The translations under genes were made by a program, and so were the position numbers. From an uncultured Acidobacteriota bacterium (GTDB taxonomy: Bacteria > Acidobacteriota > Thermoanaerobaculia > UBA5066), in the NCBI GenBank assembly GCA_963779415.1, contig CAVZYA010000001.1:1792001-1856000 (forward strand): 64,000 nucleotides of DNA, given 5' to 3'. Shown one piece after another: positions 1-19,116 of the stretch (positions are counted from its first letter, which is position 1; each line of letters starts with the position of its first letter). A model generated the notes under the pieces. The model was given only the letters and a program-made list of their open reading frames with translations. It was not told where the DNA came from and did not search any database.

Positions 1-98
1 AGCGTGAGCGCGACGATCATCACGACGACGAGAAGGGTGAGGGAGACCATCGCCTCGACGAGAGTGAAGCCGCGCCGCCGCCTAGAACGCCGCGACAT
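1..98 (-). CDS. Prepilin-type protein (PilW-like minor pilin), 5' part only; runs off the window edge
   Basis: Manual translation from ATG 98: MSRRSRRRRG|FTLVEAMVSLTLLVVVMIVALT, a class III signal peptide with G-1/F+1/E+5; overlaps the stop of the upstream minor pilin. Confidence 0.85.
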   Translation of the reverse strand, partial: MSRRSRRRRGFTLVEAMVSLTLLVVVMIVALT

Positions 99-621
99 AG
101 TCCACCCGCTTTCCGCTGATGAAGGTCAGGCCGAAGAAGCGCCTCGTGGCGTTCACGTCGTCCGTCGGGACGGCCGTCACCGTGATGATCCAGAGGGCGT
201 TGGCCCCGCCGCTCGAGAGAGCGACGTTGTAGGAGATCTTGTAGGGGCCTGACGACTGCTCCATCACGTTGGCCCCGTCCGGGCCCCAGTAGTCCCATCC
301 CGTGTCCGACGACAGGTAGGGAAGGCTGTACGTTCCGGCCGTGAGCGTCGGGGGAACGCCGGAGTCGAAGGGAGGCGTTCCGGGAGGGTTCCGCCGCGTC
401 AGGGCGTAGCAGAAACGGATGTTCTCGACGACCTGCTGGCACTTGAAGAGAAGCTCCGTCCGCGCCGCGGCGGCCGCGCTCGAAAGGAGGGCGAGCGAGA
501 AGAGCTGCAGGATCCCCGCGACCATGATCGAGAGGATCGCGAGCGCGACGAGGACCTCGATGAGACTCGATCCCCGGCGGCGCGCCGGGTTCCTTCGCGA
601 GGGTACGGGGAGCGATCGCAT
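82..621 (-). CDS. PilV-like minor pilin
   Basis: RRRG|SSLIEVLVALAILSIMVAGILQLF prepilin motif; ATG 621 overlaps the upstream TGA. Confidence 0.8.
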   Translation of the reverse strand: MRSLPVPSRRNPARRRGSSLIEVLVALAILSIMVAGILQLFSLALLSSAAAAARTELLFKCQQVVENIRFCYALTRRNPPGTPPFDSGVPPTLTAGTYSLPYLSSDTGWDYWGPDGANVMEQSSGPYKISYNVALSSGGANALWIITVTAVPTDDVNATRRFFGLTFISGKRVDYVAAF

Positions 622-1289
622 CAGAAGTTGATCACCACCATCTGGACGGTCCATGCGGGCGAGATCCGGAGCTCGAACCCGTGTCCCGGCGTGAGGCTCC
701 CCGAAGCCATCTCGGGGAGCGTGAGCGGGAACGTGGCCGCGGCCGTGTTCTGCGGACGGGCCGTCGTCGAGAAGTCGCTCACCGCGCGGCCGAACGTGTC
801 GCAGGCGAGGAGATGATCCACCGTGACGTCCGTGGAGGCCGAGGACCAGTTCGCGGCGGCGATCTGACCCGCGACGGTCGTCGAGAGCGAGAGCGCCGTG
901 AGATCGAGCGTGTGCTCCTCGACGAGCGTGTCCTTGGTCGGGTCTACCGTCCCGTAGGGGGGCATGACGAGGGTGCCGGGGGGATTCCCGACCGGATCGC
1001 CGTTCGGATCGTCCGCCCAGAGCTGGATGACCGTGGCCCCGCCGGCCGTGGCGCTGCCGATCCGGAGGAACATCATCGCGCCCCGACGCTGGGATTCGAG
1101 GTACGCGCGCGTCGTCATGATCTGGATCGTCTGCGCCATGGAACTCAGGGCGTTTCGCCGGAGGAGCCGTCTCGCCTGGATTCCCGCGATCGTCAGGGTG
1201 ATTCCCAGGATCACGAGCACGATGAGAAGCTCGATGAGCGAGAACCCGCGCTTCGCGGAGCGACGCCTGACGGCTCGGTGGGTTCGCAT
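621..1289 (-). CDS. FimT/FimU/GspH-like minor pilin
   Basis: C-terminal part of ORF 621..3638: KRG|FSLIELLIVLVILGITLTIAG...; first gene of the FimT-PilV-PilW order. Confidence 0.8.
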   Translation of the reverse strand: MRTHRAVRRRSAKRGFSLIELLIVLVILGITLTIAGIQARRLLRRNALSSMAQTIQIMTTRAYLESQRRGAMMFLRIGSATAGGATVIQLWADDPNGDPVGNPPGTLVMPPYGTVDPTKDTLVEEHTLDLTALSLSTTVAGQIAAANWSSASTDVTVDHLLACDTFGRAVSDFSTTARPQNTAAATFPLTLPEMASGSLTPGHGFELRISPAWTVQMVVINF

Positions 1290-1496
1290 CGGATGGACCG
1301 GCGGGAGATTAGCGAGTCTCATGCCGCGATTCGTCATTCCCCGGAAGCGATTCTCCCTCAAAAGCTTGCCGGGCGGGAAGCCCGCGCGGCTGCACCCGCG
1401 AGCCGGGGCAAGGCGACACCTTTCGTAACAGCGGCGGGCGCGGCGATCGCTGCGAACTCCCGCGCCCCGTCGGCTACCATAGCCGCGGAGAGGGAC

Positions 1497-4016
1497 GTGG
1501 TCCTCGAAAAGATCCGGAAAGGCCTCCGGAGCGAGCCTCCCTGGCTCACGCAGCTGCGTGAGCATCGCTGGAGCTCCGACGCCCAGCGAAAGGAGCTTCT
1601 CGACCGCTTCTCCTCGCAGCACGATCCCGACGTCGAGTGGGTGATCTGGACCGCCCTCGATCCGAATCCCGATCTCCGCGCGGCCGGGATCGCCCTCTTG
1701 AAGAAGCGGAGAGACCGGGAGGCGTATCCCGCAATCGCCTCGCTCCTTCACACGAAGTCGGACGCGGTCCGCCGCGCCGTCCTCCGTTTCATCAGGGATC
1801 TCGCCGGGGCCGAGCTCCCGGGCGTTCTCCTCGAGCTTGCCACCACGGGAGACGACCGTACCCGCCTCGCGACGCTCGAGCTGTCGGCCGGGTCGAGCGG
1901 CGAGGTCGCCTTCGAGGTCGCGCGTCGGACGATCCAGTCTCCGTCCCCCGCCGTCCGGGCGGGCGCGCTCCGGCTCGTCAGCGAGACGAACTTCCCCGGA
2001 GGCTCCGCCTCGGCGGCCCGCCTCGCCGTCCCGCTCCTCCAGGACGAGAACAGCGAGATCCGCCTCGCCGCCCTCGCCGTCCTCGAGCGCCACCCGAGCG
2101 AATCGACCTTCCCCGACCTTCTCCAGATGGCGCGAACGGGCGACGAACGCGTCATGCACGCGGCGTTCGGCGCTCTCCTGCGCCTCATTCCGAACGCGAA
2201 GGCGGACCACACGCCCGAGATCGTGCCTCTTCTGTCGGACGGGCTCCCGGCCGTCCGGGCGGGCGCCATCACCCTCCTCCAGGGCGCCGCCCCGGCCATC
2301 GTGGGCCGCCGTTTCGTCGAGCATTTCCACGGCGCCTTCGTCTGGGTCCGGGACCGCGCCCTCGACACGACCCGGGAAGGGCTCCCGGAGTTCGCGCCGG
2401 CGCTCATCGCCCTCTGCGAGGATCCGGACGGGACTCTCGCGAAGGCCGCGAGCGAGATGTCGCTGGCGCTCGAGGACCCGCGCGCGATCCCGGTCTGGCT
2501 TCGCCTCGTGGACGATCCGGACTACTGGGTCCGCGCCCGCGCGATCGAGCTTCTCGGCCAGAACGGGCATGGCCGCCCGGAGGTGCTGCCGAAGCTCCTC
2601 GTCGCCCTCGACGTGCCGGAGATCGCGATCCCGGCGGCCGCGGCCCTCGGAGAGATGGGGGATCCGCGGGCGGCCGGGCCGCTCCTCGAGGCGTTCAAGA
2701 AAGCGCAGGCGAGGGCCGACCTTCAGGTCGAGCTGATCGAGGCGATGGGGACTCTCGCCCGGGTGGAGCCCCGGATCGTTCCCCTCCTCGGCAAGATCGC
2801 GCAGACGCCGCAGATCGACGCCAAGGTGCGCGAAAAGGCACGCCGGACGGTGGAGCTGGCCCAGTCCGCGGCCGAAGGGGCCTCGGCGTCGATCGAGGAC
2901 GACGAGGAAGGTCCGGAGCTTCCCCGGGCCGAAGGGGAGGAGGCCGGGCTGAAGCAGATGCTCTCCGATGCCGTACGGGCCGGCGCCTCCGATTTCCACC
3001 TCGCGACCGGCTTCGTCCCGCACCGCCGCGTCCAGGGGCGGCTCGAGCCGGTCGACATTCCCACGGTGACCCGGAAGAGAGCGCAGATCCTCGTCAAGGA
3101 GATGCTCTCCGACGCCGAGTGGAAGCAGCTCGAGGAGGAGCGCCACCTCGACGTCGCCCTCCGGATCCCGCGCGTCGGACGGTTCCGGGCGAACTTCTTC
3201 TCGCAGCGGAGCGGTTTCGACGCGGCGTTCCGGGTGATCTCCCGCGTCATCCCGAAGCTCGAGGACCTCGGGCTGCCGCCGTCGGTGGTGGACCTTCTCC
3301 GGATGACGCAGGGGCTCGTCCTCGTGACGGGCCCGGCCGGGTGCGGCAAGTCGACGACGCTGGCGGCCATGATCGACCGTCTCAACGAGACCCGCCCCTG
3401 CCACATCATCACGATCGAGGACCCGGTCGAATACGTCCACCTCCCGAAGCTCGCTCTCGTCAACCAGCGGCAGGTCCCCCGCGACACGGCGTCCTTCGCG
3501 CGCGCGCTCCGGGCAGCGCTCCGTGAGGATCCGGACGTCATCATGGTCGGGGAGCTGCGCGACCTCGAGACGATCTCGCTCGCCGTCACGGCCTCCGAGA
3601 CGGGACACCTCGTCTTCGGGACGCTCCACACGTCCCACTCGGCGGCCACGATCGACCGGATCATCAGCTCCTTCCCGCCGGGGCAGCAGGGCCAGATCCG
3701 CGTCATGCTCGCGGATTCGCTGAAGGCCGTGATCTCACAGGTCCTCCTCCCTCGCCGGGACGAGCGCGGTCGGGTGGCCGCCTTCGAGATCCTCCGGACG
3801 ACGCAGGCCGTCGCGGCCCTGATCCGCGACGGAAAGACGTTCCAGATCCCCTCGATCGTCCAGACCGGGAAGCTCCACGGAATGCAGACGATGGACCAGG
3901 CGCTTCTTCAGCTCTGCGAGGCCGAGCTGATCGAGCCGGAGCTCGCGCTCGAGAAGGCGCTCAAGGCCGAGCTCTTCGAGGGGCTCGTCGCCGAGCGCCG
4001 GCGGGAGCTCGAATGA
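1497..4016 (+). CDS. PilT/PilU-family ATPase with N-terminal HEAT-repeat region
   Basis: GTG 1497 after GGAG. Repeated 'D.d..vR.aA...L' HEAT units, then a PilT domain with [32 protein letters not shown] and AVAALIRDGK (AIRNLIRE-like). Confidence 0.9.
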   Translation: MVLEKIRKGLRSEPPWLTQLREHRWSSDAQRKELLDRFSSQHDPDVEWVIWTALDPNPDLRAAGIALLKKRRDREAYPAIASLLHTKSDAVRRAVLRFIRDLAGAELPGVLLELATTGDDRTRLATLELSAGSSGEVAFEVARRTIQSPSPAVRAGALRLVSETNFPGGSASAARLAVPLLQDENSEIRLAALAVLERHPSESTFPDLLQMARTGDERVMHAAFGALLRLIPNAKADHTPEIVPLLSDGLPAVRAGAITLLQGAAPAIVGRRFVEHFHGAFVWVRDRALDTTREGLPEFAPALIALCEDPDGTLAKAASEMSLALEDPRAIPVWLRLVDDPDYWVRARAIELLGQNGHGRPEVLPKLLVALDVPEIAIPAAAALGEMGDPRAAGPLLEAFKKAQARADLQVELIEAMGTLARVEPRIVPLLGKIAQTPQIDAKVREKARRTVELAQSAAEGASASIEDDEEGPELPRAEGEEAGLKQMLSDAVRAGASDFHLATGFVPHRRVQGRLEPVDIPTVTRKRAQILVKEMLSDAEWKQLEEERHLDVALRIPRVGRFRANFFSQRSGFDAAFRVISRVIPKLEDLGLPPSVVDLLRMTQGLVLVTGPAGCGKSTTLAAMIDRLNETRPCHIITIEDPVEYVHLPKLALVNQRQVPRDTASFARALRAALREDPDVIMVGELRDLETISLAVTASETGHLVFGTLHTSHSAATIDRIISSFPPGQQGQIRVMLADSLKAVISQVLLPRRDERGRVAAFEILRTTQAVAALIRDGKTFQIPSIVQTGKLHGMQTMDQALLQLCEAELIEPELALEKALKAELFEGLVAERRRELE

Positions 4017-5143
4017 GCAGTCAGCCCGGATCCGGCCTCTTCCCCGGCGGTGCCGCGCACCGGCGGATCGACACCCTCCTCCGCCTCGTCGTCAGCAAGA
4101 AGGCCTCCGACCTCCACCTCGCCGTAGGCCGCACGCCGATGATCCGGATGGACGGCGACCTCGAGAAGCTCAAGTGGCGGGTCCTGACCGAGGAGGAGTT
4201 CGACGCCTTCGTCGCCCCGATCACGCCGCCGCGGCTCTACGACCGGTGGAAGGAGACGGGCGACACGGACTTCGCCTACTCGCTCGGCAACGTCGCCCGG
4301 TTCCGCGTCAATCTCTTCCGCCAGGAGCTCGGCTCCGGCGCCGTCCTCCGGCTCGTTCCGCCACGGGTCCTCACGATCGAGGACCTCGGCCTCCCGTCGC
4401 TCGTCTCGTCCATCTCGCGGGTGACGCGCGGCCTCGTCCTCGTCACCGGCCCGACCGGGTCGGGCAAATCGACGACGCTCGCCGCGGTCGTCGACTGGAT
4501 CAACCGGAACCATGCGCGTCACATCGTGACGATCGAAGACCCCGTCGAGTTCATCCACACGCCGCACAAATCGCTGATCTCGCACCGGGAGCTCGGGTTC
4601 GACACTCCCGATTTCGCCGGCGCCCTGAAGGCCGCGCTCCGCGAGGATCCGGACGTCGTCCTCGTCGGCGAGCTTCGGGACCTCGAGACGATGAGCCTCG
4701 CCCTGCAGGCCGCGGAGACCGGCCTTCTCGTCTTCGGCACCCTTCACACGAACTCCGCGGCGAAGGCGATCGACCGCCTCATCGACAGCTTCCCGGCCGC
4801 CGAGCAGGAACAGGCGCGCACCGTCCTGGCCGAGGTGCTGCGCGCCGTCGTCGCGCAGGTCCTCCTGAAGCGCAAGAGGGGCGGCCGCGTCCCGGCCTTC
4901 GAGGTCCTCCGGTGGTCTCCCGCGCTCGCCAACAGCATCCGCGAGGGGAAGACGGCGATGATCACGACGCTCATCCAGACCGGGCGCAGCGCCGGGATGG
5001 TGTCGCTCGACCAGTCGCTCGCCGATCTCGTCGTGGAGGACGTCGTCGCCTACGACGAGGCTTTCGAGAAGGCTCTCGAGAAGGACGGTTTCAAGGCTCT
5101 CGTCGAGAAGCGCCGGGGCGGCGCCTCCCCGCCCGGACACTAG
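4013..5143 (+). CDS. pilT: Type IV pilus retraction ATPase PilT
   Basis: [44 protein letters not shown]; ATGA overlap with the previous gene. Confidence 0.93.
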
Positions 5144-6621
5144 GGAGACGGTGGGGGCGGCGTCCGGGGAACCGAGAGGACGAACCGCGCCCCACCGAGC
5201 GAGGCGGAGCGCCCCACGGAGACTTCGCCGGCGTGGAGCCCGACGATCTTCGCGACGAGCGCGAGGCCGAGGCCGGTGCCGGACTCCTTCGTCGAGAAGA
5301 ACGGCGTGAAGAGGTTCGGGAGGACCTCCGGCGGCACGCCCGGGCCGTCGTCCTCGACGGCCACCCGGAGCGTCCCTTCCGGGCCCGTCTCGCCGCGAAG
5401 CAGAACGCGGCCCGCGGCGGCCTCGCCGGCGTTGCGGAGGAGGTTGACCAGCGCGCGTCGGAAGAGGGCGGCGTCGATCGTAGCCCGCCCGAACTCCCCT
5501 TCGACCGCGATCCCGACCGGCGGCGTCACGACCGGCGGCTCCGCGGCGATCTCCGCGACGAGCGCGCCGACGTCGGTCGGCGCGGCGTCGAGCCGCTCGG
5601 GGCGCGCGAAGAAGAGGAAATCGCCCGTGACGCGCGCGACATGCTCGGCCTCGGCTCCGACCGCGGCGAGGTGCCGGGACCGGGCCGCGGGATCGTCCGT
5701 CTGGGAGGCGAGCCGGACGTAGCCGAGGATCGTCCCGGTCGCGTTGCGAAACTCGTGGGCGATCCCGGCGGACATCTCCCCGAGCCGGGCCAGCTCGCGC
5801 TGGGAGGAGAGCTCGCGCTCGAGCCGCGTCGTCGAGAGGACGAGCGACTCCGCACGGACGGCGAGCTCGTCCGCCCGCCGCTTCTCGCGCTGCCGCAGCT
5901 CCTCCAGCTCGGCACTCAGGACTTTCAGCTCTTCGATCGTCCGCTGGAACGTCGCGATCGCCCGTTCGGTCTCGTCCCCCGAGGAAGGCTCGCCCGGGAC
6001 GACGACGCCCGCGTCGCGCGCCGTCTCCGTCAGCGCGTCGATCGGACGCATGAACCTCCGGAAGAACGGAAAAACGAGGAGGACGAGGAGGAGCGAGGCG
6101 AGCGGGACGATCCACGACACGATGAGGACGTTCCGGCGCGCGGCGGCCCGGGCCGAGCCGTCGTACACGACGCGAACGATCTGGTGTCCGCCCGTGAGCG
6201 ACACGAAGACGACCACTCGCGCCGCCCCGGGACGGGACTCTTCCTCGACGAGCGCCCCGCCGTCACGCGGGCGCGCCGGAGCCGGGAGCTTCGCCGGCGA
6301 GAGTCCGGCTTCGGGGAGAAACGTCGCCTCGGCGAGGCGGCTTCCGGCGTCGTCGTAGACGGCGGCCCCGAGGGCCTCCACGTCCCGGAGGACCAAAGCC
6401 ACGGCCGCGTCGGCTCCGAGCGCGACCGTCGGGTTTCCGCCGCGCTCCAGCCGTTCGGCCACGCGTCGCGTACGGGAGACGGCCGCGGCCCGGCTCTCGC
6501 CGATTCCCCACGAAGCGACGTTGCGGAGAACGACGAGCGACAGCGCGGCGAGGAAGAGGAGGAAGAGGACGCCGCCGACCACGGCAAGGCGGACCTGCCG
6601 CTCGAACGAGCCGACCCTCAA
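5140..6621 (-). CDS. Membrane sensor histidine kinase (NtrB/PilS-like HisKA + HATPase)
   Basis: TTG 6621 overlaps the pilD stop. Two TM helices, HAMP-like segment, H-box [14 protein letters not shown]-box [25 protein letters not shown]. Confidence 0.9.
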
Positions 6622-7779
6622 GGCAGAAGCCTCGACGGGGACGGAACGGGGAGCCCCGACAGAAAGAGAAGGAAGCGCCCCGCCGCAAAGCTGACGAGAG
6701 CGCCCACCGCGAGGAATACGCCGAAGGGGATGTCGGCCCGGTCCAAAAGGACGAGGCAGGCGTCGCCCGCGCCGATCGCGCGAGCCGAGAAGACCCGGAA
6801 GAAGGCGTCGCCGTCGTCCACGACGAGCCGGCCGACGTCCAGCGGGGCCGGCGATCCGGCGCGCCGGCGCGCGAGGCGTGCCACGGCCACGACGGGCCGC
6901 GCGGTACGCGACGACCCGCGCAGCGGCTCCCCCTCCCTCGCCGCCCCCGGAATCCCGTTCCAGTCCGGACCGGAGGCTTCGATCCGGCCGTCGGCCGCGA
7001 CGAGAAGGCCCTGACGGCGCGCGGCGGCCGCGGCGGCGCCGGGATCGCGCGCCACCTCGCCGGCCACCCGGCGCCACGAAAGGCGCCGGACCACCGCCGC
7101 CGCCAGGCCGGTGACGCTCCCGCAGAGAGATCCGACGAAGATCGCGAGCAGCACTCCGGCGACGCCGGTGAAGGCCCCCACCATCGCGATCATCTTCACA
7201 TCCCCCAGACCAAGGCCCTCCGCGCCCCGGAGACGCTCGTAGGCGGCTCTCACGGCGAAGAGGAGTCCTGCGCCGAGGGCCGCTCCGAGGAGCGCATCGG
7301 CGGTCCGGCCCGAAGCGAAGGAGCCGCCGGTTCCCCGCGCGAGATCTTCCCCCGCGGCGAGAAGAAGCGCGACGACGAGGCCGCCCAGCGTCACCTCGTC
7401 CGGAAGGATCCGGTCGGAGAGGTCCGTCCCGACGAGCAGAACGGACGCCGCGGCAAGAAGGGCTCCGCGAAGCGCGTCGAAGCCCGGCCCCCAGATCAGA
7501 GCCGCACCGAGAAAAAGGAGCGCCGTGGCGGCTTCGACGAGCGGGTAGCGGGGAGAGATCGGCGAGAGGCAGCTTCGGCATCGGCCGCCGAGAAGGAGAA
7601 AGGAGACGACCGGAATGTTGTCGTAAAACGCGATTCGCCCGTTGCAGGTCGGGCAGTGCGATCGGGGGCGAGACCACCGACTCGCCGCGCGGAAGACGAT
7701 GGATGCAGACGTTCGCGAAGGACCCGACGACGGCGCCCAGCGCGGCGGAGAAGAACAGGAAGAGCGCGAGCGCGCTCAC
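6618..7779 (-). CDS. pilD: Prepilin peptidase/N-methyltransferase PilD; one frameshift at ~7665 and a large C-terminal insertion
   Basis: [16 protein letters not shown], then (after removing one base in the G5 run 7664-7668) SHCPTC...YDNIP...[21 protein letters not shown] and IPFGVFL. Confidence 0.9.
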
Positions 7780-10154: not shown

Positions 10155-10658
10155 TTACTGCTGCGTTCCTTCCGGATACGCGATGAACTGGCCGTCGGCG
10201 AAGATGATGTCGAGGTTGAACATGGTCGTTGGGCCGAGCTCCGGGCTCGCATCGATCGTGCCGTCCTTCCCGGTCGAGGCGAGGACGTAGTCGAGCTTCA
10301 CCGAGTTCGTCCCGTAGTGGAAGTACGAGTTCCAGCCGTCCTTCATTGGCATCGTCCGGATGTACGTCGGAGACAGGGCGAGGGCCGCCGATCCACCGAT
10401 CGTCGTGTCCGGAACTGCCGTGATGCCCGACGGCCAGATGTACGAGCCGGCGGCGGCGGGATACTTGTTGTAGTCGACGGCATAGGCCTCGAGGGCCGTC
10501 CCGATCGACCGCATGTCCGCCATCGTCCTCTTCTGCTTGGCGCGCTGGATGGCGTTGAGCAGGTTCGGGATCGCGATGGCGACGATGATGCCGATGATGG
10601 CGACGACGATGAGGAGCTCGATGAGGGTGAAGCCTCTCTTGTCCCTTCTGATTCGCAT
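10155..10658 (-). CDS. GspG-like pilin, probable major pilin
   Basis: GGAGG RBS; KRG|FTLIELLIVVAIIGIIVAIAIPNLL; DGW motif (GspG DPW-like); has its own promoter and terminator. Confidence 0.88.
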   Translation of the reverse strand: MRIRRDKRGFTLIELLIVVAIIGIIVAIAIPNLLNAIQRAKQKRTMADMRSIGTALEAYAVDYNKYPAAAGSYIWPSGITAVPDTTIGGSAALALSPTYIRTMPMKDGWNSYFHYGTNSVKLDYVLASTGKDGTIDASPELGPTTMFNLDIIFADGQFIAYPEGTQQ

Positions 10659-10683
10659 CTGTTTGCCTCCTTGCCTGTGCGCA

Positions 10684-10699
10684 ATCAACATCTGTGCCA
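10684..10699 (-). promoter_or_regulatory. Candidate sigma54 (-24/-12) promoter of the pilin
   Basis: TGGCAC-AGATG-TTGAT versus consensus TGGCAC-N5-TTGCW (GA instead of GC at -12), 25 nt upstream of the ATG. Confidence 0.6.
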
Positions 10700-10842: not shown

Positions 10843-11340
10843 TCATTTCTGGAGCCCTTCCGGGAACTGGACGAAGCTCCCGTTGACGAGAATGATGTCG
10901 TCCGTAAAGAAGTGTGTCTCGCCGAGCGGAGGGGAGGAGTCGGGGGTCCCGTCGGCACCGTTCGACCGGATCGCGTAGTTCGCCCGGGAGGAATCGGTCC
11001 CGTAGGTGAACCACGAGTTCCACCCGTCCACGAGTGGAACGGTCCGAAGGTAGGTCGGGGAAATCTCGGAAACGATGGCGCCAATCGTGGCCGTCGGCAG
11101 GGAGAGCCCCGAAGGGAGGGCGTAGCCGGCCGCCGCCGGGAACCCGTTCACATCGGTCTCGTAGGAGTCGATGCCGAGGGCGATCGTCCGAATGTCGGCC
11201 ATCGTCCGCTTCTGGCGCGCCCGGTTCATTACGTTCCGGAGATTCGAGGCCGCGATCGCGACGAGAATCCCGATGATCGCGCTGACGATCAGGACCTCGA
11301 TCAGCGTGAAGCCGCGGCGTCTCCTCGGGGGCCCGGCCAT
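10843..11340 (-). CDS. Second GspG-like pilin (paralog of 10155..10658)
   Basis: RRG|FTLIEVLIVSAIIGILVAIA, ARQKRTMADIR, DGWNSWFTYGTDS; collinear with the neighbouring pilin. Confidence 0.85.
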   Translation of the reverse strand: MAGPPRRRRGFTLIEVLIVSAIIGILVAIAASNLRNVMNRARQKRTMADIRTIALGIDSYETDVNGFPAAAGYALPSGLSLPTATIGAIVSEISPTYLRTVPLVDGWNSWFTYGTDSSRANYAIRSNGADGTPDSSPPLGETHFFTDDIILVNGSFVQFPEGLQK

Positions 11341-11399
11341 TTCGTGACTCCAGAATACAAGAACCGTGCCCTCCCCCGCCGACTTGAGATACTTCCCGT

Positions 11400-12963: not shown

Positions 12964-15900
12964 TCAGCCGGAAGCCGGAATTTCCCGTCCCCTCCAGAGA
13001 AAATAGACCGCCGGGTAGACGAGAAGCTCGAGCGCGAACGAGGTCACGAGGCCGCCGACCATCGGGGCGGCGATCCGCTTCATCAGGTCGGCGCCGGCAC
13101 CCGTGGACCACATGATCGGAAGAAGCCCCACGAACGCCGCGCAGACGGTCATCGCCTTCGGCCGGACGCGCTTTACGGCGCCGTGGATGATGGCCTCAAT
13201 CAGGTCGGCGCGGTTTCTCAGCAGCCCCTTCGCCTTCGCTTCGTCGTGGGCGAGATCGAGAAACAGCAGCATGAAGATGCCGGTCTCGGCGTCGAGTCCC
13301 ATCAGGGCGATCATCCCGACCCAGACGGCGATCGAAATGTTGTATCCGAGGAGCCAGAGGAACCAGACGGCTCCGATGATCGAGAACGGAACGGCGAGAA
13401 GGACGATCATCGTCTTCATCGCAGACTTCGTATTGGCGTACATCAGGAGAAAGATCAGGACGAGGGTTATCGGGATGACGACCTTGAGCCGCTCCTTGAC
13501 GCGGAGCATGTTCTCGTACTGACCGCTCCAGACGAGCGTGTATCCGGGGGTAATCTTCACCCGCTCGGCAACCGCCTTCTTCGCTTTTTCGACGTACCCC
13601 CCGATGTCCTCCCTGGCCGTGTCGAAGTCGACGTAGACGTATCCCGAGAGGAGGCCGTTTTCGTTCCGGATCATCGCCGGTCCCTGGATCTTCCGGATCG
13701 CGGCGAGCTGTCCGAGCGGCACCTGCGCTCCGCCCATCGTCCGGACGAGGACGCGCTCCAGACGATCGAGTGTCCTCGCGCAGCTCACGGGGGTAGCGGA
13801 CGTTGACGGAGTACCGCTCGCTCCCCTTGATCATGGTGGTCACCGTCTCGCCCCCGATCGCCGACATGATGACGGCGTTCACGTCGTCCACGGTCAGGCC
13901 ATACCGGGCCAGCTCGTCGCGGTTCAGGTCGAAATCGATGAAGTAGCCCCCCGCGGCGCGCTCGGCGAATGCGGAACGGGTCGCGGGAAGGGTCCGGACG
14001 GCCGCCTCCACGTCGGTCCCGATCCGCTCGATCTCGGAGAGGTCCGCGCCGAAGATCTTCACACCCACCGGCGTCCGGATTCCGGTGGAGAGCATGTCGA
14101 TCCGGTTCTTGATCGGCATCGTCCACGCGTTCGTCGTTCCCGGGATCTTCAGGGCCGCATCCATCTCGTCGACCAGCTCCTCGTAGGAGATCCGGTCGCG
14201 CCAGACGTGCCGGAAGATCGACGCGAGCCACCTGGGCGCCCAGGGCGAGTACCAGCGGTCTCTCCTTCGCCACCCGGACTCGGGCTTCAGGATGACGGTC
14301 GTCTCCATCATCGAGAACGGCGCCGGGTCCGTGGACGTATCGGCTCTCCCCGCCTTGCCGAAGACTCGCTCCACCTCGGGGAACGTCCGGAGGATCTTGT
14401 CCTGCACCTGCAGGAGACGCTCGGCTTCCGTCACCGAGATGCCCGGGAGCGTCGTCGGCATGTAGAGGATGCTCCCCTCGTAGAGAGGCGGCATGAACTC
14501 CGAGCCGAGCTTCAGGAAGACCGGCACCGTCGAGGCCATGGCCAGGAGGGCGACGGCGATCGTCGCCTTCGGGTGGCGAAGGACCGCGCGGCACGGGCGT
14601 TCGTAAAGGCGATGGAGAACCACGCTGATCGGGTGCTTCTCCTCGGCGTAGTACTTCCCGACGGCGATCTGGTTCGCGATCCAGGCTAGCCACTTCGGCC
14701 GGAAGGTGAAATCGTCCATCCGGACGAAGAGCATCCGCACGGCGGGGTTGAGCGTGATGGCGAGGAGGGCCGCGATGGCCATGGCGAGGTTCTTCGACCA
14801 GGCGAGCGGCCTGAAAAGGCGTCCTTCCTGGTCGACGAGCGTGAAGATCGGCAGAAACGCCACGGCGATGACGAGAAGGGAGAAGAAGACCGACGGGCCG
14901 ACCTCCATCAGGGCATCGAGGCGCACCCTGTGGAAGTCGCCGGGACGCCCCGAGTCGTTCCAGAGCTGGAGTTTCTTGTAGGCGTTCTCGACCTCGACGA
15001 TGGCCCCGTCCACGAGGACCCCGATCGAGATGGCGATCCCTCCCAGCGACATGAGGTTGATGTTCAGCCCGAGGAGCTGGAACGGAATGAACGCGAGGAT
15101 GATCGAGACGGGGATCGTCAGGATCGGCACGATCGCGCTCGGGACGTGCCAGAGGAAAAGCAGGATGACGAGGGAGACGGCGATGATCTCCTCCGTCAGC
15201 TTGTCCTTCAGCGTCGTCACGGCTCGCTCGATGAGGTCGGACCGGTCGTAGGTCGTGACGATCCGGACCCCCTTCGGAAGCGACGGCTCGATCTCCTTCA
15301 GCTTCGCCTTGACCCGGTCGATGACGTTCAGGGCGTTCTCCCCGCTCCGCATCACGACGATTCCGCCGACGACGTCCCCCTTCCCGTCGAGGTCGGAGAT
15401 GCCGCGCCGGATCTCGGGGCCCAGCGAGACCTTCCCGATGTCGCCGACCGTCAGAGGCGTTCCCTTCTCGTTCGTCTTGACGACGATCCTCTCGATGTCC
15501 CGGACGTTCTTCAGGTAGCCCCGGCCGCGGACCATGTACTCCCGGCCGGAGAACTCGATGAGCCGCCCCCCGACCTCGTTGTTGCTCTTCCGGATGGCGT
15601 CCACGACCCCGTCGAGCGAAAGGCCGAAGGCGGCCAGCGTGTTCGGGTCCACCGTCACCTGGTACTGCTTCTGGAAGCCCCCGATCGAGGCCACCTCGGC
15701 CACGCCAGGAACCGACTCGAGGGCGTACCTGAGGAACCAGTCCTGGTACGAGCGGATGTCGTCGTTGGCGTTCCGGCCGCTCTCGTCGACGAGGGCGTAC
15801 TGGAAGACCCAGCCGACGCTCGTCGCGTCGGGCCCCAGCTCGGTCTTCACGCCGGCCGGGAGACGCGACTGGATCTTCGACAGGTACTCGAGGACGCGCG

Positions 15901-16246
15901 AACGCGCCCAGTAGATGTCGGTGCCGTCCTCGAAGATGACGTAGACGTACGAGAAGCCGAAGTCGGAGAAGCCACGGATCGTCTTGACCTTCGGCGCGCC
16001 GAGGAGGGCCGTCACGATCGGATATGTGACCTGGTCCTCGAGGATGTCGGGGCTCCGGTCCCAACGGGAATAGATGATGACCTGCGTGTCCGAGAGATCG
16101 GGGATGGCGTCGAGCGGGATCTGCCGGATCACGCCGACCGAAAGGACGATGGCGATGGCATAGAGGACGAGGACGAGGAACTTGTTCTCGGCCGAGAAGC
16201 GGATGACCCTCTTGATCCATCCGCCGCCCTGATTCGGCTCGCTCAC
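12964..16246 (-). CDS. cusA: CusA/CzcA heavy-metal RND permease (frameshift at ~13772)
   Basis: LDAIPDLSDTQVII, LGPDATSVGWVFQY, GSEFMPPLYEG, DPAPFSMMET; C-terminus RVRPKAMT...MKRIAAPMVGG lies in the adjacent frame. Confidence 0.93.
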
Positions 16247-16256
16247 GCCGGCCCCC

Positions 16257-17699
16257 TCACTGCGCCGGGCCGCCCGGGGGCGGCGCTGCGGTCGTCGGCG
16301 CTCCGGAAGTCATGGCGGAGAGGGCGGCCTTGAGGCGCGACTCCGAATCGACGAGGAAGTTCGCCCCCCGGGCCACCACATCGCCCTTCTGAAGGCCGCT
16401 CCTGACCTCGTAGACCCCATTGCCGTGATCGCCGACGGTGATGTCCCGCGGCTGGAAGCGCCCGTCCCCGAGCGCGACGAAAGCGACCTTGCGCGTCCCG
16501 CTGTCGAGCACCGCATCGTCCGGAACGCCCAGCACCTCTCGCGTATTCCCGCGGATCGTGACGTCGGCGAACATCTCGGGCTTCAGCTCGCCCTTCGGGT
16601 TGTCCAGCTCGATCCGGACCTTCACCGTCCGTGTCTTTTCGTCGACGGCGGGATAGATGTACGTCACCGTGCCGTGCCAGCTCCTCGCCGGCCAGTAGGA
16701 GAGCGTCATCGTGGCCGCCTGGCCCACGGAGAGGCGCGGCAGCTCGTATTCGTAGACGTCCGCGAGGATCCAGACGTGCGAGAGGTCGACGATGTCGAAG
16801 AGGGTGTCGGCCGGCGTCACTTTCATGCCGTGGTAGGCCGTCCGCGCCCAGATGTAGCCGCTGATCGGAGCGTAGAGGTCGAGCGTCTTCAAGGGCTCGC
16901 CTTTCTCCTCGATCCGGGCGATCTCCCTGGGGCTGATCTCCCAGAGAAGAAGGCGCTGGCGGGCGGCATCCAGGAGGTCCTGCCCCCCCTGCGAGACGCT
17001 CGGAACCGTGGACCCGGCGAGGGAGCGCGAGGCCTTAAGCGCGAGGAGGTACTCCTGCTGCGTGGCGTAGAGGTCGGGGCTGTAGACCGCGGCCAGGGGC
17101 TCCCCTTTCCGGACGTACATCCCCGTGAAGTCGCCGTAGACGTGCTCGACGTAGGCCTCGAACCGCGTGTGGACGTGATGGACCCGCCGATCGTCGGCGG
17201 TGACCCGTCCCACCGTGTGAATCGAGGTGGCGAAAGGGAGACGCGAGACCCGGACGGTCTTCAGCCCGATGAGCTGCTGTCGTTCCGGGTCGATCCGGAC
17301 GGTCGCGAAGCCCTCCGGGACGGCGCTGGCACCCTCGACGTCCTCCGCGTAGACGGGAACGAAGTCCATCCCCATCGAGTCCTTCTTCGGGACAGGCGAC
17401 GTCTCCCGCGGATTCATCGGAGACCGGTAGAAGAGGATCTTTCGCTCCCCGGCGGAGGCCGGCGTTCCGGCCGCAGGGGCGGCGGCCGTCCGGGTCTCGA
17501 CGGGGACGAGCTTCATTCCACAGATCGGACAGTCGCCCGGATGGTCCCGCACGATCTGGGGGTGCATCGGGCACTGGTACTTCTTCGCGGCCTCGGCCAC
17601 CGGCACCGGCTTCCGGCATCCCGCCAGAGCCAGCACACCGGAGACCGCAGCCAGGAACGTTCCGAGCAGCACGAGGAGAACCAGGGAGTTCTTCTTCAT
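16257..17699 (-). CDS. cusB: CusB-type RND periplasmic adaptor with heavy-metal-binding domains
   Basis: YQCPMHPQI...CPICGMKL, YRSPMNP...KDSMGMDFVPVY, LKPEMFA, FLVDSESRL. Confidence 0.9.
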   Translation of the reverse strand: MKKNSLVLLVLLGTFLAAVSGVLALAGCRKPVPVAEAAKKYQCPMHPQIVRDHPGDCPICGMKLVPVETRTAAAPAAGTPASAGERKILFYRSPMNPRETSPVPKKDSMGMDFVPVYAEDVEGASAVPEGFATVRIDPERQQLIGLKTVRVSRLPFATSIHTVGRVTADDRRVHHVHTRFEAYVEHVYGDFTGMYVRKGEPLAAVYSPDLYATQQEYLLALKASRSLAGSTVPSVSQGGQDLLDAARQRLLLWEISPREIARIEEKGEPLKTLDLYAPISGYIWARTAYHGMKVTPADTLFDIVDLSHVWILADVYEYELPRLSVGQAATMTLSYWPARSWHGTVTYIYPAVDEKTRTVKVRIELDNPKGELKPEMFADVTIRGNTREVLGVPDDAVLDSGTRKVAFVALGDGRFQPRDITVGDHGNGVYEVRSGLQKGDVVARGANFLVDSESRLKAALSAMTSGAPTTAAPPPGGPAQ

Positions 17700-17707
17700 G
17701 GTGCTGC

Positions 17708-19116
17708 CTACATTCTCCCGGCCACGGAAGTGATGGATGAAGACGAAGCCGGCGGCGACGACGGACCCATGGCAGACGCGGAGCCCGCATCGACAGAGAA
17801 CTCGTAGAGGTCGGCCTCGGCGCGGATCAGGCTGGCGAGGCGCGCCGAGGGCATCCCGGCGGTCCGTGAAGTACGTGCTGAGCGCTTCGAGAACGGTGAC
17901 GAACGGGACCGAGCCGGTCCGGTAGCTGGCGAGGGCGGCATCCACCGAGAGCCGGTCCTGGACGAGGATGCCTTCGGCGTCGAGCTTCGCTTCGGCGGCA
18001 AGGGACTCGATCCGGATCAGCCTCTTCTTCGGTGAGAGCCTGGATCTGCCGCCGGAGAGAGGTCTCCTTCGAAGAGGCCGACTCGAAAAGGCTCTCCGCC
18101 TCGACGATGAGGGGCCGCTGCTTCGCCCCGGCCCAGAGAGGGATCGAGACCCCGAGGGCCGCGGACCACATCAGTGGAAGTCCGCCGCGGTTCATGTACC
18201 CCGCCGAGGCGACGAAGTCCGGTTTCAGGTTCCTGCGGGCGAGGTCGGCCGAGAGCTTCGCCCGTTCTTTCGCGAGTCGGCCGCCTCCTTCAACTCCGGG
18301 GTGATCTCCAGAGCCTTCTCGAGGAGCTGTCCGGACGCAAGGGAGGGCCGGAATCCGTCCGGCCTCGAGCCGGCCCCCCGTCGGAAGCGGCGCATCGGGC
18401 GGCCTGAACAGGAGCCGTCGGAGCTGGCTCGCCGCCGTCCTCTCGGCTGCTTCATCCCGTCTTCGCTGCTGGAGGAGACGGGTCCTCTCGCTCTGCGCTC
18501 GGAGGATGTCCTGCTGGGTTCCGAGCCCCGCGGCATAGCGGGCGCGAATCACCCCTTCGATCTCGCCCCATGTCCCTTGCTGCTCGTCGACGAGCCGGAG
18601 ATCCTCGCGAGCTTCGAGAAGGTCGGCGTAGGCGCGCCGAACGGCGGATTCGATTGTCAGAGCGACCCGCTCGGGCCCCGTGCCGGCCCGGGCCGCATCC
18701 GCACTTGCGACCTTCTCGGCGAGGCCGAGCTTTCCCGGAAACGGAAACGCCTGCTGCGCCACGAAGGCGAGGCGCGTCATCGGTTCCGTGCCGAGCGACG
18801 GGGCGACTCCATCGTTCTCGTAGGCGATCGTGACCATCGGGTCCGGGAGCGCTCCGGCCGGGCGGATGCGTGCGGAGGCGGCGGCCGCCTCCTGTCGCGC
18901 GGCAGCCAGGTCCGGGTTCTTCGCGAGCGCCTCGGCGACAAGAGCGTCGACCTCGGCCGCGGGCACGGCCGGTTCCGTCGCGAGCAGCGCGCCCGCAATC
19001 GGGACCGTCTCGGCTGCCCGGGCCCCCGCCGAAGCGAGACACCAGACGATACAGACGCCGGCGGCCGCCGCTCGGGACCCTCTAAGAAAATCGTTCTTCT
19101 CTTCTGGTGCAAACAT
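17708..19116 (-). CDS. TolC/CusC-family outer membrane factor (several frameshifts)
   Basis: ALAKNPDL, GALPDPMV, QAFPFPGKL, SIPLW and ASYRTGSVPFVTVLEA spread over three frames. Confidence 0.85.

Follow-up and report, generated by a model that had tools for sequence, protein, structure and literature searches.

We study a gene at positions 1497 to 4016 (+ strand) of a 64,000-nucleotide stretch from an uncultured Acidobacteriota bacterium (GenBank assembly GCA_963779415.1, contig CAVZYA010000001.1, positions 1,792,001 to 1,856,000; the whole stretch is called the window below), whose product joins an N-terminal arm of HEAT repeats to a PilT-family ATPase. Judged by its sequence, this fusion gene is a member of an old, conserved subfamily of PilT-type ATPases in Acidobacteriota and Myxococcota, and together with the PilT paralog that follows it the gene forms a conserved two-gene unit that has been co-inherited. 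The fusion is conserved and under selection; it is not a product of chance or error. We consider it somewhat probable that the pair serves the type IVa pilus as an accessory module for retraction, made of two ATPases, with the HEAT arm as tether or scaffold. Neither the PilT/PilU protein family nor the concept of retraction ATPases that work in pairs is new; what is new relative to the literature we searched is the HEAT arm, the strict pairing with a sister whose His box is altered, and the distribution over two phyla.

The fusion gene is one uninterrupted open reading frame (ORF) with a GTG start and a TGA stop, which translates to 839 residues. A Shine-Dalgarno-like stretch (GGAGAGGG) precedes the GTG, and this choice of start is supported by the relatives, which begin with MVLEKLRG at the same place. 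The initial annotation, made from the letters of the window without database searches, described a PilT ATPase fused to a HEAT solenoid of about 460 residues, and this description is borne out by Pfam, by the NCBIfam model TIGR01420 (pilT_fam) and by AlphaFold2; the peptides it quoted (DPNPDLRAAG, KSDAVRRAVL, DENSEIRLAAL, DPDYWVRARAI and IEDDEEGPE) are all in the translation. The HEAT-repeat alpha-solenoid covers residues ~11-459 (1527-2873, +) with 28 helices in about 14 repeats, as seen by Pfam, AlphaFold2 and Foldseek: HEAT_2 matches in three stretches with E 2.3e-29 and 101.9 bits (cut-off 27.7), and HEAT with E 5.4e-11 and 42.1 bits (cut-off 23.5). A flexible acidic linker containing IEDDEEGPE follows at residues 461-480 (2877-2936, +), in columns that are variable in a 39-row alignment of the family. 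The PilT-family ATPase, with both its N- and C-terminal ATPase domains, occupies residues 485-839 (2949-4013, +), delimited by TIGR01420 and by alignment to the solved P. aeruginosa PilT structure 3jvu. Within it T2SSE matches residues 485-760 with E 6.1e-46, and TIGR01420 scores 433.5 bits (cut-off 319.1) over residues 485-823, that is, profile positions 2-340 of 343. The AlphaFold2 model of the whole protein, built from the 39-row alignment, has a mean predicted local distance difference test score (pLDDT) of 85.2 and shows 28 helices at residues 2-459, then a PilT-like alpha/beta fold; pLDDT falls below 50 at residues 461-480, and the predicted template modelling score (pTM) of 0.52 reflects two domains joined by a flexible link. 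Modelled alone, the HEAT domain reaches a pLDDT of 89.4 and a pTM of 0.75. The closest database homologs of the protein share 87-90% identity with it and are named Thermoanaerobaculia.

All four motor motifs can be located in the ATPase, as had been claimed. These are Walker A (GPAGCGKST, residues 612-620; 3330-3356, +), the Asp box (EDPVEY, residues 641-646; 3417-3434, +), Walker B (DPDVIMVGELRD, which contains VGELRD, residues 678-689; 3528-3563, +) and the His box (residues 701-712; 3597-3632, +). Pairwise alignment to P. aeruginosa PilT equates E686 with E204, H704 with H222 and H711 with H229, so that the catalytic Glu of Walker B and both His-box histidines are present. Because the motifs are intact and the score lies above the PilT/PilU cut-off, the ATPase of the fusion protein looks competent.

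How general is this architecture, and is it real? Searching the HEAT region alone against 5.8 billion proteins returns 70 family clusters at E <= 3.7e-55, 66 of which carry both HEAT and T2SSE, most of them with lengths of 834-872 aa. Where a taxon is stated it is Thermoanaerobaculia, save for one partial entry labelled Acidithiobacillales. The initial annotation knew of no description of such a protein, and this holds for the literature, where a full-text search found no description of PilT fused to HEAT repeats; it does not hold for the databases, where the proteins are common under the source names 'PilT/PilU family type 4a pilus ATPase' or 'twitching motility protein PilT'. The ESM Atlas contains five clusters (51-131 members) with T2SSE in all members and HEAT_2 in 87-100%, and the commonest phylum is Myxococcota in three of them and Acidobacteriota in two. 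A search of protein representatives with the HEAT profile finds mostly giant multi-HEAT proteins, and at least about nine single-stretch members of ~825-845 aa among the matches listed; among the database representatives, P0219 carries the name 'Myxococcales bacterium' and P0283 the name 'Myxococcota bacterium'.

A search for the architecture across genomes, using the HEAT profile followed by a check for the ATPase, was made in a subsample of each phylum and finds it in 21 of 401 Acidobacteriota and at least 54 of 401 Myxococcota genomes. In Acidobacteriota (where the count includes one unpublished genome, G024, without which it is 20 of 400) the HEAT region matched 27 genomes at E <= 1e-10; a PilT ATPase follows in frame in 21, and the other six hold unrelated HEAT proteins. 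The split is sharp: with a profile built from 20 HEAT domains, the same 21 genomes match at E <= 2.2e-139 and the next best genome at 2.1e-37. The 20 delimited fusion ORFs are 821-841 aa long, and the loci range in GC content from 32 to 73% and fall in ten groups at family level, some within the window's class and others beyond it. The Myxococcota sample was centred on the genome that holds P0219. Here the HEAT profile matched 65 of 401 genomes at E <= 1e-30, near-full-length in 54 (E <= 9e-71), and at all 30 loci examined the HEAT match leads directly into the ATPase, with strand and frame unchanged, one of the loci being cut by a contig end. Alongside these class-1 fusions there is a longer Myxococcota subfamily (class 2) with ORFs of 925-991 aa and Walker A near residue 690-750, confirmed in 5/5 loci. 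One further Myxococcota genome (G411), unmatched at 1e-30, nevertheless encodes, on inspection by eye, a HEAT-type PilT fusion with a PilT gene behind it (L138); the Myxococcota counts are thus lower bounds.

These counts bear on the possibility that the fusion is an artefact, in which two genes, one for the HEAT region and one for the ATPase, were merged by an error in sequencing or assembly. Four of the 70 database clusters (P0025, P0031, P0061 and P0068) do show HEAT without T2SSE, but they are shorter, and two come from contigs of 2.5-4.1 kb. One 365-aa entry, 'type IV pilus twitching motility protein PilT', shares a 90%-identity cluster (P0282) with 845-aa HEAT-PilT proteins, so the gene start may be placed downstream of the HEAT arm in some annotations. 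Against an artefact stands the same unbroken ORF, with HEAT and ATPase in a single frame, in 21 Acidobacteriota and 30/30 Myxococcota genomes, across independent assemblies of very different GC; the length is conserved, and the linker is short, disordered and about 20 residues in the model. We therefore rule the artefact out, its probability being vanishingly small.

Two side observations concern other proteins. In Acidobacteriota, a recurrent family of open frames of ~745-800 aa matches only part of the HEAT profile, with E 1e-26 to 1e-37 (G023, G305, G216, G004, G083:C50, G040:C104, G070, G107:C20 and G056), and the two at L031 and L032 have no PilT domain. The G411 genome also holds a second tandem PilT pair (L146), the upstream member of which has, in place of HEAT repeats, a segment like PilT-N together with a stretch rich in Pro, Ser and Ala; extending the upstream paralog at its N-terminus may thus be a more general theme.

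Now we consider the gene downstream. The fusion gene and its partner share an ATGA start/stop overlap, read from the sequence at 4013-4016 (+), and the partner (4013-5143, +) encodes a PilT paralog of 376 aa that scores 426.8 bits on TIGR01420. The initial annotation had called the downstream gene a normal pilT coupled by ATGA. The coupling is as described; the gene itself is a specialised paralog and not a normal PilT, because it belongs to a clade of its own and, in 18/18 partners, the first His-box histidine is missing. It retains intact Walker A, Asp box and Walker B motifs; its His box, ETGL...TLHT, has ETGL instead of ETGH and so lacks the first histidine, and different residues stand in place of AIRNLIRE, the motif near the C-terminus that marks canonical PilT.

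The pairing itself is nearly universal. A second PilT-family gene lies directly downstream of the fusion gene in 18 of 19 other Acidobacteriota loci, the single exception (L051) being one where pilC and pilB follow instead. In Myxococcota it is found at 19 of 30 loci within short flanks and at 8/8 re-fetched with longer flanks, hence at 27/27 assessable loci (the remaining 3 of the 30 end at contig edges), and it is also present in 5/5 loci of the longer subfamily. Of 17 partner genes that were called in other Acidobacteriota, 9 overlap the fusion gene by 4 nt and 6 more start at most 20 nt away. One locus (L154, G582:C189:6100-9200) has two complete PilT-like genes in a row downstream of the fused gene.

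The phylogeny addresses where the two ATPases come from. We built a maximum-likelihood tree of 61 ATPase cores, comprising 20 fused proteins, 18 partners, the other PilT-family paralogs of six genomes and one PilB outgroup; the unpublished G024 and the partner at L036, which the gene caller did not call, were left out. The fused proteins form a clade with support 100/97, the partners one with 100/99, and the two together with one unlinked paralog another with 100/99, while the AIRNLIRE-bearing PilT genes form their own clade (100/100) apart from both. The claim that the fusion is a distinct motor subtype accordingly gains support: the fused proteins form their own clade, sister to the partners and apart from canonical PilT, in two phyla. 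The fusion and partner clades show the same internal branching at the level of family groups, which points to one tandem duplication of a PilT-like gene followed by joint inheritance. A quick 91-row tree that includes Myxococcota places the class-1 fused ATPases in one clade (35 rows, support 98 in the Shimodaira-Hasegawa-like approximate likelihood-ratio test, SH-aLRT), with the Myxococcota fused rows interleaved with one Acidobacteriota subclade and a Myxococcota partner (G401) inside the partner clade (98). In the same tree the longer subfamily and its partners are two more clades of one superclade (67 rows, 97), and canonical PilT lies outside it.

We also examined the conservation and fold of the HEAT arm. 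HEAT solenoids are typical scaffolds. The length of the arm is steady, at 447-466 residues in the 39-row alignment, and its mean pairwise identity is 32%, compared with 55% for the fused ATPase core and 59% for the partner. The conservation profile is highest at residues ~270-420, in the motor-proximal C-terminal half, and most of the positions that vary little or not at all belong to the HEAT_2 repeat consensus (Arg, Ala, Leu and Asp); W344, which lies in a DWW motif, is a further one. Foldseek returns the PP2A A subunit, designed alphaRep, karyopherin-beta2 and CAND1 as the top matches of the HEAT domain (6ef4, E 1.1e-9); because TM-scores are low (0.27-0.41, about 0.3) and identities are 12-23%, the likeness is one of repeat type only. 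A complex prediction of the HEAT domain with the partner PilT scored 0.00 in both of its runs, which were made without controls; this score speaks neither for nor against binding. Like the HEAT scaffolds (PR65/PP2A A subunit, karyopherin-beta, CAND1 and the PBS-lyase-type HEAT_2/alphaRep proteins), the arm is an alpha-solenoid of paired helices recognised by Pfam HEAT_2; unlike it, none of these is fused to a secretion-type ATPase.

Quantitative inspection of the catalytic motifs across the family reveals how the two ATPases differ. The Walker A Lys and the Asp box (E, D, P and E) are invariant in 39/39 aligned family members, and the Walker B Glu is E in 35/39 and D in 4/39. At the fifth position of Walker A (Cys616 in the window's protein, 3342-3344; GPxGCGKST) the residue is Cys in 33/39 aligned Acidobacteriota family members, Ser in all partner and canonical PilT rows, and Cys in only 3/14 Myxococcota class-1 fusions. 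In the His box the first histidine is kept by all fused proteins (20/20 Acidobacteriota, 14/14 Myxococcota class-1 and 5/5 class-2 rows) and is absent from 18/18 partners and 5/5 partners of the longer subfamily, which have L, I, T, M or V there. The second histidine is kept in all of these partners, whereas in the fused proteins it is N, S, D or Q in 9/20 Acidobacteriota and 6/14 Myxococcota class-1 rows; counted over the 39 aligned family members, this H229-equivalent histidine is lost in 14. Canonical PilT keeps both (6/6 in its clade), and so do the window's fused protein and its whole subclade, which retain every catalytic residue. The two paralogs have diverged in opposite ways at one catalytic motif, which suggests a division of labour and not redundancy.

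An alternative reading makes the HEAT copy a regulator and not a motor: mainly an adaptor or regulatory subunit that binds nucleotide, exerts little force and controls where and when the partner or the canonical PilT engages. The usual scaffold role of HEAT solenoids fits this, as do the losses of the second histidine (14/39) and the changes of the Glu to Asp (4/39) in the fused copy and its slightly faster evolution relative to the partner (by the identities given above). It is also consistent with P. aeruginosa PilT, where the H229A variant is only partly functional and is augmented by PilU (PMC12607626). We nevertheless regard a regulator as rather unlikely, since the window's protein and its subclade keep all catalytic residues, the Walker A Lys and the Asp box never vary, and the partner has itself lost a His-box histidine in every case, so that it is not obviously the 'real' motor either.

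Comparison with known systems brings out what is familiar in the pair and what is not. Like PilT (P. aeruginosa 3jvu/3jvv, Aquifex 2ewv and Geobacter PilT4 6ojx), the core at residues 485-839 aligns end to end, has the four motifs and scores above the TIGR01420 cut-off. Unlike canonical PilT, which has ~345-400 aa, the fusion protein has 839 aa with a ~460-aa N-terminal HEAT solenoid and linker, a Walker A Cys in place of Ser, a separate clade and a location that is not beside pilB and pilC; its AIRNLIRE site is half kept, reading AVAALIRDGK, of which AVAALIRD is identical at 4/8 positions. PilT-PilU systems (P. aeruginosa, V. cholerae and Acinetobacter; in M. xanthus, PilU is MXAN_1995) resemble the pair in having two tandem PilT-family paralogs that presumably act together. 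The initial annotation pointed to pilT-pilU pairs as common, and we rejected a pilT-pilU pair as an explanation: P. aeruginosa PilT (3jvu) matches the fused core with 324.7 bits and the partner with 350, whereas PilU (9n32) reaches 227.1 and 229 bits, so that neither protein is closer to PilU, and the tree pairs the two with each other as nearest relatives. The extra feature here is also an N-terminal HEAT arm and not the C-terminal extension of PilU.

Extension ATPases offer a second comparison. PilB and GspE, which typically have a zinc-binding tetracysteine motif in the C-terminal domain, likewise carry an extra N-terminal domain flexibly linked to a PilT-like hexamer core, theirs being N1/MshEN. 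An identification of the fusion protein as PilB or GspE is rejected: it scores 152.9 bits on the PilB model (cut-off 675.65) and 150.9 on the GspE model (cut-off 630.25), and Pfam finds no MshEN or PilZ-type domain in it. The NCBIfam models of DotB and VirB11 are also far below their cut-offs.

By description, the nearest studied case is the pair of Myxococcus xanthus PilT paralogs MXAN_6705 and MXAN_6706. These are reported to be highly conserved across Myxococcales, MXAN_6705 to have a longer N-terminus predicted to be intrinsically disordered, deletion of MXAN_6706 to cause a partial defect in S-motility, and all the paralogs to have retained the four motor motifs (Rahman et al., J Bacteriol 2026, PMC13584747). 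The likeness lies in two PilT paralogs in succession (their consecutive locus numbers suggest a tandem) with an N-terminal extension on the upstream one, and the difference in the arm, which is made of HEAT repeats here and is predicted to be disordered there; the systems are compared by description only.

We now turn to the neighbourhood of the pair, which provides the link to pili. Divergent from the fusion gene lies a minor-pilin-like gene with an N_methyl motif (621-1340, -), whose syntenic counterpart in a same-order relative (L041) matches GspH, and then a second minor-pilin-like gene with an N_methyl motif (82-654, -), next to which, just outside the window, there is a PilX_N gene (L055). 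Convergent with the partner is a sensor histidine kinase with HisKA and HATPase_c domains (5140-6594, -), represented by PAS-containing kinases at the syntenic position in same-order relatives, followed by a prepilin peptidase with A24_N_bact and Peptidase_A24 domains (6618-7775, -, coordinates from stop to stop) and a pilin with N_methyl and T2SSG matches (10155-10661, -) that has a second copy at 10843-11343 (-). Six genomes of the same order share this synteny on both sides of the pair: minor pilins (GspH-like, PilW and PilX) on one side, with a PilY1 domain in 2/6, and on the other the kinase (with PAS where called), the prepilin peptidase, a YfhO-like membrane protein and, where the contig reaches, pilins. 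Because the pair sits in this cluster of pilin and prepilin-peptidase genes in the window and in six same-order genomes (with PilY1 in two of them), and because pilC and pilB follow the fusion gene in L051, we link it to pili.

The rest of the genome bears on which machine the pair might serve. Six genes of the window's genome score above the cut-off of the PilT/PilU family; M. xanthus has five PilT paralogs. The canonical PilT (with AIRNLIREDK, at G000:C1:1334437) lies between pilB and pilC, some 460 kb from the window, and the genome also encodes two platform proteins, two secretins and two PilB-like ATPases. Three further PilT-family paralogs (G000:C1:1071855, L006; G000:C2:464647, L005; G000:C1:177728, L002) each have orthologs in other Acidobacteriota genomes examined. 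Of these three, one is extended at its C-terminus by a long stretch full of Glu, Gln, Arg and Lys, resembling a coiled coil; another has about 100 or more additional residues at its N-terminus; and the third has a Walker A reading GTTGSGKST and the motif YIRDCIENKEKT.

These inventories allow for a different machine, in which the pair would power or disassemble a second type IV filament, a system like the type II secretion system, or a substrate other than pili that the HEAT arm would hold. In its favour, the pair is unlinked to pilus genes in most lineages, the platform proteins, secretins and PilB-like ATPases come in twos, and the PilT-like ATPases exceed the machines in number. We consider it improbable all the same: in the window's order the pair is embedded among minor pilins, PilY1 and a prepilin peptidase, pilC and pilB follow the fusion gene in L051, and the nearest solved relatives are all PilT retraction motors.

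Returning to the reading that we prefer, that of an accessory retraction module, the pair would work at the type IVa pilus machine by a logic analogous to that of PilT with PilU. Each fused ring, if it is the usual hexamer, would bear six HEAT arms on flexible tethers, and these arms might dock the motor to another cytoplasmic component, or sequester it from one, that would be encoded elsewhere in most lineages. The two rings may cooperate, by analogy with PilT, which is reported to bridge PilU to the pilus machine (10.1101/2025.10.30.685630).

Four points weigh against this reading. A distinct binding motif was sought in the HEAT domain and not found, the conserved positions being essentially the structural consensus of the repeat (Arg, Ala and Leu, on alternate helices). 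The H229-equivalent histidine is gone in many relatives and the catalytic Glu is Asp in 4/39, and in lineages with such losses the motor activity of the fused copy may be weak or absent. Beyond the window's order, unrelated housekeeping genes surround the pair (13 Acidobacteriota and 16 Myxococcota contexts), so that family membership is the only thing that ties it to pili there; a conserved third gene is likewise missing outside that order (19 Acidobacteriota and 16 Myxococcota contexts). Finally, the pair may be conditional or redundant, since the same genome also encodes a canonical pilB-pilT-pilC set and three additional PilT paralogs.

A bolder version goes beyond an accessory module. In this version the pair would be an obligate two-ATPase motor, built as mixed hexamers or stacked rings with complementarily degenerate His boxes, such that neither ring is a complete PilT alone, with six HEAT arms tethering it to a cytoplasmic structure or cargo. 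It would then constitute a third kind of motor module for type IV filaments beside PilB and PilT(/PilU), one that predates the two phyla, Acidobacteriota and Myxococcota, or was exchanged between them. We offer this tentatively, as something that we doubt more than we believe.

Several observations concern the surroundings of the pair within the window. For the fusion gene, a search with a sigma-54 consensus found no site upstream of it, and a sigma-70 scan of window positions 1-7000 found nothing. Sigma-54-type -24/-12-like sites do lie upstream of both pilins, at 10685-10699 (-) and 11357-11371 (-), reading TGGCACAGATGTTGA (1 mismatch) and GGGCACGGTTCTTGT (2 mismatches), but because the window-wide count is at chance (28 sites, against a chance mean of 29.9) they are suggestive by position only. 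A PilR-like sigma-54 response regulator is encoded just beyond the window (L055:2383-3741, -), in addition to the sensor kinase described above. The prepilin peptidase continues for ~160 residues past its A24 domain, which ends at residue 223 of 385 (stop to stop); its relatives in the same family have 392 aa and those in the same order 262-264 aa. A CusA/CzcA-type efflux gene of the resistance-nodulation-division (RND) type at 12964-16309 (-) is seemingly frameshifted, judged by translation: the ORFs 13196-16309 and 12964-13830 overlap in different frames, each being part of a sensible-looking protein, and a membrane-fusion-like gene (16257-18170) adjoins them.

What the finding serves is the question of how the work of retraction is divided in bacteria with many PilT paralogs. 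The module is a clean, testable case: a strictly co-inherited pair from one duplication, with a large protein-binding arm on one copy and opposite losses in the His box. Annotation under names such as 'PilT/PilU family' or 'twitching motility protein PilT' hides the HEAT-PilT architecture. Once the ligand of the HEAT arm is known, it could become clear how bacteria of two large phyla from soil and sediment position or switch their retraction motors, and MXAN_6705 and MXAN_6706, poorly understood paralogs in the motility model Myxococcus, would become easier to interpret.

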